Origin: a virus
Taxonomy: Duplodnaviria > Caudoviricetes
Reading direction: 5' to 3' (one strand)
IMG/VR virus record: IMGVR_UViG_3300019742_000001
Length of the DNA stretch: 64,000 nucleotides
The position numbers were made by a program. Of this stretch, positions 6,001 through 12,000 are shown piece after piece. Position 1 is the first letter of the stretch, and the number at the start of each line of letters is the position of its first letter.

Positions 6001-9000
6001 CTGCCTCAGCAAGCAATTCTTCTGCTGTTACTGTGGATTGAACTCTACAAGTGTCACCCATAATCTCTTTAAGTGAACTCATAGGGTATGTTGGTAGAAA
6101 TGGTTCATCACCAATTGTTACAACAATACCTTTCTTTCCTCGTTTATCAAAACTATCTGTGGATGTGTGGTATGAGGAGAAATACCAAGCCAACGGATAA
6201 GACTCTCCTGCGTTACCACCTCCACCACCTTCAAGATAGGTTCGTGTCAACCACATATCAAGTTCTGCGTCACCTGACTCAAACTGTGCTACTTGTAGGG
6301 GGTATCTATCACACTCATGGTCACCGATAGCACCAAACATAAGTGAAATGTCTGGAATACCACTCTGGATGATCTTGCTAATCAATGTTGGCAGACCATC
6401 TTTGATTAGTTGGTGGGGGATATGACCCATTGACCCTGTTACATCCAAGTATAACTGTAGTGGTACAGTATTTGGATGGGCATCACTGTCACGACATTCA
6501 CGAACATCAATATTCTTTGATGACATTTCAGCGTGAGACTTCCGTTCTGATTGTTGTTGAAAGATCTGATTGATACTTTTTGTTGCGTATCCTACATTGG
6601 TACTACGCATTGAACGATCTAATGTTGAATAAGAACTGTATCCCATAATTAAATCCCCTCACCGAATAAGTGGTCATAACGCTCTTTAGCAATCTCTAAT
6701 TTAATTGTGAGATTACGAATTTCGATACCAAATTGAATATCACGGTCAACAAATTGTTTACTGTCAAAATCACTTGCTACAACAAGACTCATTGCATTAT
6801 CAGGTGACATATCAAGCATATTTTCCCGTTCTCGTTCCAAACGACGAATATTGATACCAAGATCTTCTACTTCTCGTTTGTATCGGATACAGGCATCCTC
6901 ACCAATAGTTGCCGCTCGGTCTTGACGAATTTGTTTGTTGTTTCTTACCAGTGATTCAATAAATGCGCCTTTAATGTTTTCTTGTTCTGACATTTTGTTT
7001 CTCCCTCGTTTATTGTTTATTGTATCTTTCCCAAAAGTTCCTATAACCTTTGGATCTTACGATATCAGAACTTTTACATTCTAAATATCCATCACCTTTA
7101 ACATCATAAGGAACTTCTTTCCACTCTTTTTTCTCTTTGTCCCATTTCCCTCTGTATGAGAACATATCAGAAATCCATTTGAACATTGTCTAATCTTCCA
7201 TAATATTTTCAGATGTGTCTTCTGTGCCACCATCAATACTATTATCTCGTTTGTAGTCTCTGTAACGTTTCATCATTGATTTTATACCAAACCACCACGA
7301 TACTGGCCAAAACGTAACACTAACAAACCATAACAGAATTAGACTTCCTGTGGTGTGTTGATGTTCTTCAATTAAAACTTTCTTTCGTTTCCTCAAACAA
7401 CCTTTAGTGATGAATAATTGAATAAACATCCCAATTAGATATACCACTCCACCTATGTAATATGGATTTGATATGATTGTTTGATAGATAATAAGTAATG
7501 TTAACATTTCTTCCCCTTTGTGATTATTAGTCTATATTACATCTTCACTGTTGATATGTAAACACATCAATCCATCATGTTCGTTATGTTGATTAGGTTA
7601 TCATCAATTTCTATATTTGTTTCGTGTAGATTAACTGCCTTTTGCCACCGTTCAAGATAATATTTGAATTCATCAAGATCAGTGAATAAAATCTCACCTG
7701 AAAATACTGATGCATCCATATCATCCATTTGATCACTATAATTATGTCCCATTAATCAGTCTCCTCTTCGTCATCTTCTTCGCCATCGTGGTCACCAATA
7801 CAACAAGTACCATCATCCATCTGGGCACATTCATAACAGTTTTCCAAACATGGTGATTCAGTACACCCAATACAGTTGTTATCTTTGTTAGGTAGGTTAC
7901 AACACATTATTCCACAATTACTCCAAAGATCTTAGGTAGTTGATATTCCATATAGAAATCATGGGCTTCTTGGTTGAAGTCAGCTACCGCATTACTATCA
8001 ACCATGATTGAATAGTCACGATTGGCAAGATCTGCAATGGTTTGTGCCACACAAATTGATGTACAACAACCAACTACTTCAACAAGATCAGGTTTTTGGT
8101 CTAACAACAGTTGTTCAAGGATGGTTCCGTAGAATCCACTGTAACGTTTTTTACTGATAATAAAATCATACTCCTGTGGGGTTAGTTCGTCAATAACCTT
8201 TGCACCCCATGTACCGTCAACTGCATGTGTCGGGAACCGTTCAAATTCAGTATCAAATTGATAGTGATTATCATTAAGGTAAACGATAATATCACCATTC
8301 TTACGGTATTCTTCTAACTTTTGTTTGATTACTGGTACAATCGGGTAACCGTTTTCTTTCAGTGACAATACACCAGCCTCATCAATGAAATCATTAAGCA
8401 TATCAACAACTAAAATAACTTTTTTCATACAATATCCTCTCTTGGAATGTTATAGGGATTTTCTCTCTTGAAGTGAGTTGCATTATACCGCGTAATGACA
8501 GGATGTGTTACCATTAGTTTACAGTCATCAGGTAGGTTAAGATAACCAATCATAATCTGATCAACCTCCTCATATGAATCAGCACCTAGTTGGTCAAGAT
8601 CTGAATTAGTAATACCAAGACCATCGGTTGGTGTTGCATCAATACAATCATTTAATGACATAGCACGAAAATGGCAATTTAATCTACGATACATATCAAC
8701 AATATAACTTGATAGACCATAAACCTCAGTCTTCCAAAGGTTTTGAACCATACCATAATCACCAACATCACCGTTGAGTGTCCAGAAACCCATCAACAGT
8801 TCAGTGTAATTGTCTGTTCCTAACACCATCCCACCTGTTACACCAGCAAGGTGATAGAGTTGAATCATCCGAATTCGTGCTTTAATATTTCCTTTTGCAA
8901 TTTTACCAGCATAACTGTCTTCGTCCATATCACCTAAGTCAAGTTCGGTGAGGTTATCAAAAAACAAATTAGTCAAATCAATTTCTTCAAAGTCATCACA

Positions 9001-12000
9001 AAAATAACCACCAATTGAGTCAGCTCGTGAAATTTCATCCTCTTTGTTTGTTTCGATCACAATGGAACGACCAATAAGTGGGATACCAGTACCAGACTTA
9101 TCAATAGCATGTCGTGCAAGTGCCGCAACCAGTGCTGAGTCAATCCCACCACTAACACCTAACACCAGTGATTTTACCCCACTACTGATAATGTAATCCG
9201 ATAATTTCTTGGTAGTATTATCAAACATCTTTTCATAGTTTGTTGACAGTTCATACATATGATAGTTTCTCCTTGTCGTTTGTTATGAAGTGGATTTTAC
9301 ATCTTTCATAGGATTAAAAATCACCTTCTTGTCAACACCATCAAAATATTGAAAGTAATCAATCAGGATACGAGCATGGTCAAATGGAACGTGATTTAAA
9401 GATATCAATCTTTCAATTTGTTTTCTTGACAAGAACTTTGCCTCACGTGCATCTGATGCTGCTAAAGGTTCTTGTTTTTGATAGACACGATGACCAATAA
9501 ACACGGTTGTTGTGTTGTGTTGTCGTGGGTCACGGTTAGGGTCAGAGTATGTATAGAACATTTCGTCTAACCAAATGTCGAGGGAAACTTCCTCTTTCGC
9601 TTCACGAACAGATGCATTTTCAAACGATTCACCTTCATCAACGAATCCTCCCGGTAATGCCCACCCAAAAGGGGCATTTTCTCTGGAAATCATCATAATT
9701 AAAGGACCACCCTCACATACAGGATTCATTTCTGTGATGATGATATCGACTACTGGTGTTGGATTTCTATATTCAGACATTTTATACCTCATATGTTGTT
9801 AAACTACTTTGAATACCTTCTTGATGTATGCCTCAAATTCAGGATCTTCACACATTCCCTTACCTTGACTGTCAGAAATCTTACACACTGGCATCCCATC
9901 CAATTCAATCATTTTCAATACGATACTGATTGGTTCACATCCCATATCATTCATCAGGTTAGTACCAATACCGAAACTCACATTAATAAACGGACTGAAT
10001 CGTTTGAATAGGTTGTATGCGGTGTTGAAAGTAAGACCATCAGAGAATACAGCAGTTTTGGTCTTTGGGTCAATACCTAATTTACGGTAGTGATCAATTA
10101 GTTTTTCACACCATACAACAGGATCACCACTATCATGACGACAACCATCAAATAACTTGGCAAAGAACAGATCAAAGTCTTCCAAGAATGCATCAAACCC
10201 ACAGATATCACTCAAGGCAATACCAAGTTCACCACGGTACTCTTGTGCCCATACATCTAGTGATTCCTTCTGACTATCAACCAAACGACCACCTAATTGT
10301 TGGTGTGCTTGGAACCATTCATGAGCCATTGTACCAATTGGTGTAAGATCATACTTCATTGCGAAGAATAGGTTGGATGTACCAACAAGAACTCCTGCGG
10401 GTAACTTTTCAATTAGTTCTGATAACACGAACCCTTGCCATTCAAAACTATACCGACGACGAGTACCAAAGTCAGCAAATTTAAATCCTTCTAATGAACC
10501 AACCTTGTTAAGTAAGTTGAGAGATTCAATTTTATATTTTAATAGGTCACGACCACTTGGAATAGTAGTTGCTTGCATCTTACATTGACTGTGTAGTTCT
10601 GAAACAATAGCAAGAACAGGTACTTCCAACCCTGTAACGGCAACCCACGGTCCGTCTAAGACAATATCCAATGATCCATCACTCATAACCTCAACCTTTA
10701 CGTGGTCACGGTTATATTTGAACATACGAAGGTAGTCAACATAATCATCTTTGAAGATTTGTGTTCCGATTTTAGACCGAATATTACGAACAAAATCTAA
10801 TTCTTCTGTTGTATATGACAGATTACACAGGTGGTCAATACTCTGGTTCAGTGCCAATAGAAATTCACTGTCACCAACACCATTTGATGGGAATCCATTA
10901 CCTTTACGAGCTTTGAATCTCCATTTGGTAGTGGCAGATGTATATCGATGGAACATTGCCTGTCCCATCGACAATTTATACAGATCAGTGTCCAACATAC
11001 TTTCAATCAATACTGGTTTCATATCATTCCTTATATAAAAATGGGGTTATCCGAAAGACAACCCCATTCTATCTACTATTCACTTATAAGTCAAGATGTT
11101 TTAAGATTCATCACTGGAACAACACGATGTACAATATCCGCAGTCGGTCCAATACAGTTTTCAATGGTCTTTGCTGACTTGTATGCTAATGGTGATTCAT
11201 CTAATGGTTTAACTGAGGCATACACCCCTTCCATCACATCTTCAGCATCTTCCTTTGATATGGTTTGTTTTGCCTTTGAACGGGAAAACAATCTCCCTGC
11301 TCCGTGTGGTGATGAACAGTTCCACTCTTCGTTAGACTTACCCTCAACAATCAATAATCCATCTGCTGGATTAAATGGGACTATCATTTTCTCACCCACA
11401 TAAGATCTAATAGAACCTTTACGAATGACCCAATCATCAAAGTCAATGAAGTTGTGAACAGTTGAGATATACTCTATCACAAACTTACCGATAATATCAA
11501 GGATATCAAAAATCATCACATTACGACTAAGATCAGCATATTTTTGAGCAATCAACATGTCTACCAGATACCCATACATATCTTCACCTTCAAGATATTC
11601 TGTTCCTTTAGGTACATTTGATTGTTTACCCATATATTTGTCGAATTTTGCAATCTCTTGTTGCCATTTGTCTCGTTTGAACATTGATTTGACCTGTGCA
11701 ACATACTCAACTTTTGACATTGTAGGTTCAGTCATTCGTTGTCGTGCAATCTCTTGCCAATATTCAGCAACACATTTCCCGAAATTACGTGATCCTGAGT
11801 GGACAGTTACCCAATAGTCATCCTTTTCATCCTTACCAATCTCAATGAAATGGTTACCTCCACCTAATGTACCAATTGACATCAAGGCACGTTGGGGGTT
11901 ACATCCAACTTTGGTGAACATACTAACCAATTTCTCACTGTCCATCACAACTGGATTCATTCTCAGATTGAACTTCTTGTTGAATCTCATTGTAAACAGA

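Follow-up and report, generated by a model that had tools for sequence, protein, structure and literature searches.

Depletion of nicotinamide adenine dinucleotide (NAD+) is among the commonest ways in which bacteria abort phage infection, and the three phage counter-pathways that have been tested all retain the amide group. Two NAD+ reconstitution pathways, NARP1 (Adps and Namat) and NARP2 (Nampt and Nmnat; NadV/NatV in KVP40), were shown in 2024, in a text that mentions neither PncA, nor NadE, nor nicotinic acid (Osterman et al., bioRxiv 2024.02.11.579819). NARP3, which consists of a PnuC-like transporter and a NadR-like kinase/adenylyltransferase, defeats Sir2-HerA (Yan et al., Sci Adv 2026, PMC13464706). 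In an overview of viral NAD/ADP-ribose systems from 2022, only enzymes of the amidated route, NadV, NadM, and NadR, are listed (PMC9503650). The deamidating Preiss-Handler genes were described in gut jumbo phages, by genome analysis alone, as pncB-nadD-nadE clusters together with phage pncA (Li et al., Microbiome 2024, PMC11662467), and our literature search found no paper in which a deamidating phage route was tested against a defense system. Here, we analyze a four-gene operon, pncB-Nudix-nadE-pncA, located on the minus strand at positions 7907-11022 of a 64,000-nt stretch of tailed-phage DNA (IMG/VR record IMGVR_UViG_3300019742_000001; the whole stretch is referred to below as the window).

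We consider it probable that the operon is a deamidating phage route that salvages nicotinamide to NAD+ with the help of host NadD. The original prediction for this locus presented it as a candidate third phage route. That place is already occupied by NARP3, and Preiss-Handler clusters of jumbo phages had been reported in 2024; the concept of phage Preiss-Handler genes is thus part of the literature, while a nadD-less operon predicted to lead from nicotinamide to NAD+ and including an ADP-ribose-type Nudix hydrolase is a new variant.

The block consists of four tightly packed open reading frames (ORFs), all on the minus strand. The first, pncB (9799-11022), encodes a 407-aa nicotinate phosphoribosyltransferase (NAPRTase), and is separated by 6-18 nt from the gene of a 165-aa Nudix hydrolase, a putative ADP-ribose pyrophosphatase (9283-9780). 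A 24-nt spacer (9259-9282; CAAACGACAAGGAGAAACTATCAT), which contains an AAGGAG ribosome-binding site and was defined by comparison of the junction with two related phages, L091 and L093, precedes nadE (8425-9258), the gene of a 277-aa NH3-dependent NAD+ synthetase. The last gene, which overlaps nadE by 4 nt, encodes a 173-aa PncA-like putative nicotinamidase, a cysteine hydrolase of the isochorismatase fold (7907-8428). The identical four-gene arrangement is present in assemblies of at least four samples, and is therefore not an assembly artefact; the exact PncB protein is found on a 239,309-bp contig (ENA ERZ27248004) and on contigs of at least three other samples.

The PncB and NadE assignments made earlier are borne out by curated family models. 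PncB matches PF04095 and PF17767 and, over its full length, scores above the NCBIfam equivalog cut-offs (481 bits with NF003704, cut-off 379; 411.3 bits with TIGR01514, cut-off 269.55); it is of the ATP-coupled type I. Its match to Pseudomonas aeruginosa PncB2 (PDB 1yir) has an E-value of 1e-111, and His234, in the sequence GTMAHEW, aligns with its counterpart in 1yir and is invariant in seven phage homologues. This histidine of the GTMAHE motif corresponds to the conserved phospho-histidine of Salmonella PncB. NadE matches PF02540 and scores 118.7 bits with TIGR00552 (cut-off 63.65), while staying below the full-length equivalog NF010587 (118 vs 255 bits). The protein has a single domain, with an SGGIDS P-loop (the ATP pyrophosphatase loop) at residues 36-41 and without a glutaminase domain, and its closest hits in the PDB are NH3-dependent NAD synthetases without exception (E 5e-17). 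NadE is predicted to amidate nicotinate adenine dinucleotide (NaAD), probably in preference to nicotinate mononucleotide (NaMN).

The PncA-like protein matches PF00857 (E 5e-36). Nicotinamidases are defined by a Cys-Asp-Lys catalytic triad and by a metal site formed by one Asp, two His, and a variable fourth ligand, with DxHxxxDxE as the archaeal motif (PMC5531466). The phage protein has the triad (D9/K93/C126), which is invariant in 30 homologues and in four aligned phage relatives. The metal ligands D53/H55/H68 are also present, and the segment D53-N-H55-YQF-D59-T-E61 fits the archaeal motif; D53, H55, H68, D59, and E61 are all invariant in the same 30 homologues. In a structure model with pLDDT 92.9, the best fold matches are Bacillus subtilis PncA (6a8l/5zn8, TM-score 0.90-0.91), followed by the nicotinamidases of Streptococcus mutans, S. 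pneumoniae, Staphylococcus aureus, and Pyrococcus horikoshii (3s2s, 3o90, 6kua, and 1ilw). With all defining residues and a PncA-like fold, the protein can be regarded as a putative nicotinamidase, as had been proposed.

The Nudix hydrolase matches PF00293 (E 1e-14). The longest ORF starts at 9792 (169 aa), while the likely true start, used in gene calls, is at 9780. The Nudix box, in the 169-aa numbering, reads G49-x5-E55-x7-R63-E64-x2-E67-E68, and differs from the reference signature, GX5EX7REUXEEXGU, solely by a change of the final Gly to Ser; the box residues and an RDPR motif are invariant in 30 homologues. The best PDB sequence match, to an uncharacterised Aquifex protein (2yyh), is followed by 2fml (NrtR EF2700; E 4.8e-16), and further by 3gz8/3gz5 and NadM (2qjt and 2qjo). 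A structure model (pLDDT 88.5) matches the folds of 2yyh, 2fml, 3gz8 with bound ADP-ribose, and the ADP-ribose pyrophosphatase domains of NadM (2qjt, 2r5w, and 2qjo). The protein therefore belongs to the ADP-ribose-binding NrtR/NadM clade and has intact catalytic residues. This clade is closest to ADP-ribose pyrophosphatases, and an intact signature accompanies ADP-ribose pyrophosphatase activity (PMC2330246). Of the earlier claim that the enzyme splits ADP-ribose, it is the clade that stands as observed; the substrate we infer from it, and cleavage of ADP-ribose to AMP and ribose-5-phosphate is the most likely reaction.

An argument for a single pathway comes from related phages. Six related contigs were found in IMG/VR and public assemblies (L001, L014, L091, L093, L102, and L103), and each of them encodes PncB, a Nudix hydrolase of the same clade, NadD (with the motif GGxFDPxHxGH), NadE, and a PncA-like protein within a few kb; nadD, nadE, and pncA are contiguous in all six. 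Five functions occurring together in six related contigs speak for a single pathway under selection. Conservation is highest for PncB and NadE, at 60-75% identity between the window and its relatives (ca. 70-75% for PncB, measured for four of the six, and 61-63% for NadE). In a maximum-likelihood tree of PncB, which took in four relatives and left out L102 and L103, the window protein nests in the relatives' clade with 100/100 support, as sister to L091 and L093.

In these two sister phages, a 189-aa nadD (PF01467) lies between the Nudix and NAD synthase genes, and overlaps the end of the Nudix gene as well as the beginning of nadE. At the same position the window has the 24-nt spacer only, while the C-terminal peptide of its Nudix protein is the same as theirs. 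No remnant of nadD was found in the C-terminal extension of the Nudix protein or in the spacer, and the extension is also present in the nadD-bearing L091 and L093. Since the window nests within a clade whose members all carry nadD beside nadE, a single, clean loss of nadD in the lineage of the window is the most economical interpretation, with the ribosome-binding site kept or rebuilt. By this comparison, the four-gene operon appears as a cut-down version of a five-gene module of a group of ~220-240 kb phages. PncB, NadD, and NadE are thus all phage-encoded in the six relatives; in the phage from which the window comes, PncB and NadE are, and no NadD was found in the ~75 kb searched. One relative, L014 (235,765 bp, 98% complete), contains one adenylyltransferase, the in-cluster nadD, and one NAPRTase-family gene; no Prs was found in it, nor was a Pribosyltran_N/Prs-like gene found in relative G007. 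This implies that the module is the only NAD route of the lineage, and that it always borrows phosphoribosyl pyrophosphate (PRPP) from the host.

Searches for the missing steps covered contig positions 152,332-227,589, i.e., ~75 kb of the ~239-kb phage genome including the whole window, using precomputed Pfam lists and a Pfam scan of one gap. No nadD (PF01467), Prs, Nampt, or PnuC/NadR gene was present in this annotated part, and tblastn and phmmer searches of the six frames of the window with NadD of two relatives returned nothing. The original prediction had stated that the window lacks NadD and Prs, so that both must come from outside, and these searches agree with it; the wider look through the genome for adenylyltransferases and Prs that it had proposed gave nothing in the ~75 kb covered. 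When NadD of the closest relative was compared with 5.8 billion protein clusters, orthologues appeared on contigs of relatives only, and none on assemblies of this phage. A single match to a contig of 237 kb (P0265) was rejected as bacterial, since gmk and aro genes flank it. As no phage nadD or Prs was found, the pathway would need host NadD and host PRPP. A megablast search of 50,697 phage records with the operon and an exact-word search of IMG/VR with the window both gave no match.

The enzyme sets of the tested pathways were not found at this locus. In place of the PRPS-like Adps and Nampt-like Namat of NARP1, the sole NAPRTase-family gene of the window is the equivalog PncB; neither Nampt nor an NMN adenylyltransferase, which make up NARP2, was found in the window, and neither a PnuC-like transporter nor a NadR-like enzyme, which make up NARP3, is in its Pfam lists. 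The window and the 98%-complete relative alike contain no gene for Nampt, Namat, or a PRPS-like enzyme.

Upstream of pncB, between the stop codon of an RtcB gene and the pncB start, lies a promoter-like cassette (11035-11094, minus strand). It contains the sequence TTGACT-17-TAGAAT, with the −35 box at 11094-11089, overlapping the RtcB stop codon, and the −10 box at 11071-11066. The −10 box is directly followed by a hairpin, GGGGTTGTC/GATAACCCC (11065-11043; −19.6 kcal/mol, z −4.9), and then by a T-run. The original prediction placed four contiguous genes behind one consensus promoter; the genes are there, while the promoter matches the consensus at 10 of 12 positions. The cassette, ~60 nt long, is present in four copies in the window, all on the minus strand, with none expected by chance. 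Its 38-nt core is found at 11057-11094, 13266-13303, 14292-14329, and 16898-16935, with the common pattern of a TTGAC-17-TAGAAT promoter, a hairpin GGGGTTGTC/GAT[AG]ACCC, and a T-run. On the strength of this fourfold occurrence, the cassette is a real sequence element. It was looked for upstream of pncB in the relatives, and is not conserved there. The cassette may terminate transcripts that run into it and initiate fresh ones. At the other end of the operon, two small minus-strand ORFs of 51 aa (7752-7907) and 61 aa (7567-7752), seen in gene calls in all assemblies, follow pncA directly, with the stop codon of one frame overlapping the start of the next. They gave no match in a Pfam scan, a stretch of the 61-aa ORF is 58% identical in L001, and the two may form the tail of the operon.

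The RtcB RNA ligase gene (11091-12383, minus strand), which adjoins the NAD genes in the window, has counterparts no more than 10 kb from pncB in five further viral contigs (L001, L014, L015, L022, and L032); in L015 it is placed between pncB and pncA. The proximity may reflect shared synteny or a functional link.

Taken together, these data suggest the following scheme. The operon would be transcribed by the host RNA polymerase from its own cassette, probably early in infection. PncA would convert nicotinamide, a product of NADases, of ADP-ribosyltransferases, and of sirtuin-type enzymes, to nicotinate and NH3; PncB would use host PRPP and ATP to turn nicotinate into NaMN; host NadD would convert NaMN to NaAD in place of the deleted phage enzyme; and NadE would convert NaAD to NAD+ with ammonia. 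This order of reactions is the one originally proposed, and the enzymology holds from the family assignments. The Nudix hydrolase would cleave ADP-ribose to AMP and ribose-5-phosphate, both clearing ADP-ribose and feeding PRPP synthesis by the host. The net effect would be that NAD+ in the infected cell is kept high, beyond the reach of host regulation, and serves the phage ligase and other NAD consumers; high NAD+ would also offset cleavage by defense NADases. The operon could serve in counter-defense, in supplying the NAD consumers of the phage itself, or in both roles.

Several points weigh against this scheme. With the NCBIfam PncA equivalog NF008623 (PRK11609), the PncA-like protein scores 28.3 bits vs a cut-off of 174, a model built on the longer enterobacterial PncA type, and its top PDB sequence matches include uncharacterised "isochorismatase-like" entries. 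The substrate specificity of a Nudix enzyme cannot be read from its sequence, and the fold matches also include diadenosine tetraphosphate (Ap4A) and nucleoside triphosphate hydrolases. A relocated or non-orthologous adenylyltransferase may be encoded in the other ~164 kb of the genome. Finally, the route consumes ATP at three steps and relies on NadD and Prs of the host, so that a fast NADase might outpace it.

The most far-reaching form of the proposal is that PncA, PncB, NadE, and an ADP-ribose-cleaving Nudix hydrolase, acting with host NadD, make up a fourth phage NAD+ reconstitution pathway that restores NAD+ and rescues infection from NADase defenses such as Thoeris, DSR, and SIR2-HerA. 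An anti-defense role is suggested by the context of the operon, and we hold this full form to be a tentative possibility, one that we would sooner doubt than accept. If true, the pathway, needing only free nicotinamide, could beat defenses that modify ADP-ribose to block NARP1, and the natural nadD deletion would show that adenylylation is not limiting during infection.

Somewhat less likely again, although the likeliest rival to the preferred reading, is an explanation in which the same biochemistry is housekeeping: the operon would recycle nicotinamide and ADP-ribose from the phage's own consumers, LigA and possibly ADP-ribosyltransferases, and give no measurable protection against defense. 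The phage does encode a ligase of the LigA type (59538-61337, minus strand; PF01653, PF03120, HHH_5, and BRCT matches), which agrees with the earlier statement that its ligase is NAD-dependent; a NADAR-like gene (PF08010) lies beside the ligase on the record; and the 2024 jumbo-phage survey ties NAD synthesis genes to many NAD-consuming phage enzymes (PMC11662467). However, LigA releases NMN and not nicotinamide, so PncA would be of no direct service to the ligase. Moreover, the two purposes are compatible, and the experimentally tested phage routes, NARP1-3, all protect against NADases.

We consider it improbable that the operon serves mainly to remove products, with PncA destroying nicotinamide, which as a product inhibits ADP-ribosyltransferases and enzymes of the sirtuin type, the Nudix hydrolase destroying ADP-ribose or signals derived from it, and PncB and NadE only tidying up. 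PncA and Nudix are indeed outside the classical Preiss-Handler trio and yet are present in seven of seven lineages, and nadD could be lost, so that a fully autonomous pathway is evidently dispensable. Against this, the two enzymes that would merely tidy up are the best conserved and belong to the same operon, and the translationally coupled nadD-nadE-pncA core of the relatives points to flux through to NAD+.

Two other explanations can be given very little weight. NadE could have become an NMN synthetase after nadD loss, converting NaMN to NMN as in Francisella, with host NadM or NadR finishing the synthesis; nadE has been kept while nadD is gone, and the PDB matches of NadE include 3fiu, the enzyme from Francisella (E 2.6e-13), but it is not the top match, the protein aligns without obvious remodelling with the relatives' NadE that works beside NadD, and host NadD is near-universal in bacteria. 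A decaying remnant, in which nadD loss broke the pathway and the other genes are drifting, would account for nadD being missing in the lineage of the window only, and is equally hard to accept given four intact ORFs with all catalytic residues conserved, a good ribosome-binding site before nadE after the deletion, and the same arrangement in several samples. The preferred reading thus remains a working deamidating route that uses host NadD.

The Pfam annotation identifies the window as a region devoted to replication and nucleotide metabolism in the genome of a large tailed phage. Its G+C content is ~35%, nearly all genes are on the minus strand, no tRNA genes were found within it, and the public runs containing it are microbial-mat metagenomes; a look for RNA runs brought up none. 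The region encodes a family B DNA polymerase, gp32, UvsW, a DnaB-like helicase, a primase-like protein, and a clamp-loader-like AAA protein, as well as a class II ribonucleotide reductase, dUTPase, RNase H, and the NAD-dependent ligase. The ligase gene is adjoined by HD_4 (SpoT-like), HD, and Phage_30_3 (the NADAR-like PF08010) genes (61349-63286, minus strand; precomputed Pfam hits). At 4664-6993 (minus strand), the gene of a PurA-like protein, which matches the adenylosuccinate synthetase profile (416 positions) over 1-318 only, is followed by two genes without a Pfam match. At 35514-37273 (minus strand), the gene of a 363-aa JAB-domain protein adjoins that of a 197-aa ThiF/E1-like protein, a ubiquitin-like conjugation/deconjugation pair inside the phage replication region. 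Minus-strand genes within 20724-21332, 23739-24801, 42900-43172, and 44212-44568 encode a Mom-like protein by the polymerase, a Metallophos and cREC_REC receiver pair, an HU-type DNA-binding protein, and a staphylococcal-nuclease homologue. Beyond the window start, positions 14382-20315 of L099 carry, on the opposite strand, a RimK/ATP-grasp fusion and several genes of 150-480 aa without Pfam hits. A LAGLIDADG homing endonuclease gene (1848-2450, plus strand) lies opposite to all its neighbors, and relatives L091, L102, and L103 contain other homing-endonuclease-like insertions (DUF723/HNH-like and GIY-YIG) in or beside the NAD module. Among named cellular proteins, the nearest homologues of the PncA-like protein are from Desulfobacterales (Desulfosarcina; ~50% identity, the same 173-aa length), and named Nudix homologues include those of Candidatus Magnetomorum and Aminicenantes. 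These homologues give a weak hint of a sulfate-reducing host in the mats.

Among GenBank phages, true phage PncB is rare (Atu_ph07, Phosso, and a few megaphage or gut contigs) and often adjoins nadE; unrelated jumbo phages repeatedly carry pncB paired with nadE. In PHROGs, an NAPRTase family is missing and the isochorismatase family is given as of unknown function, which implies that such genes are rare in cultured phages. Most "viral" PncB hits in IMG/VR (L044-L089) were rejected as host genes, located ~30 nt or less from the end of a prophage contig, and the best "phage" PncB hit, Acinetobacter phage MD-2021a (CAKLQH020000008.1, L101), was recognized as a bacterial chromosome by its serB, psd, and phoBR genes. 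Such prophage-end and mislabelled records inflate the apparent counts of phage pncB.

If the deamidating route works as proposed, phages borrow the commonest salvage chemistry of the host, through a route that is indifferent to how a defense handles ADP-ribose. The module is compact, 3.1 kb in the window and ~3.7 kb with nadD, and the nadD-less variant beside six nadD-bearing relatives offers a natural comparison for the steps that limit NAD+ recovery in infection. Should the operon prove protective, it would extend the NARP series; should it serve only the phage's own NAD consumers, it would amount to a jumbo-phage auxiliary metabolic module of the ordinary kind.

Like NARP1 and NARP2, the proposed route would rebuild NAD+ from nicotinamide left by NADases (NARP1 also uses ADP-ribose), and NatV/NadM of NARP2 carries a Nudix domain of the same clade. 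Unlike the window route, those pathways keep the amide, use a Nampt-family enzyme, and need two enzymes; the route proposed here would deamidate first, has a true NAPRTase (an NCBIfam equivalog), and needs NadE and host NadD. NARP3, also a two-gene phage module for restoring NAD+, differs in importing external nicotinamide riboside, and the Pfam lists of the window contain neither PnuC nor NadR. With the NAD-jumbo phages (PMC11662467), the phage studied here shares its jumbo character, clustered pncB and nadE, and NAD-consuming enzymes in the genome, both being known from genomes alone. In contrast to those clusters, the window operon adds a nicotinamidase and an ADP-ribose-type Nudix hydrolase, and so starts at nicotinamide and not at nicotinate; having no nadD, it is incomplete when all steps are required to be encoded, as in that study. 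The phage also differs from the Bacteroidota "Kuafu" clade in belonging to a microbial-mat group with T4-like replication genes. Looser parallels among cultured jumbo phages, known from annotation, are Sinorhizobium phage Phosso (pncB and nadE in GenBank), Agrobacterium phage Atu_ph07 (pncB and an annotated ADP-ribose pyrophosphatase 3 kb away), and Bacillus phage G (PncA-like gp275 and NAD synthetase gp283, 5 kb apart); their identity to the window proteins is 27-33%, and none has a compact four- or five-gene operon. Finally, the bacterial PncA-PncB-NadD-NadE salvage route and the NrtR/NadM ADP-ribose pyrophosphatases employ the same families and the same logic of ribose-5-phosphate supply for PRPP (PMC2330246), whereas in the window these genes, without a regulator domain and without nadD, are borne by a phage and gathered in one compact operon.

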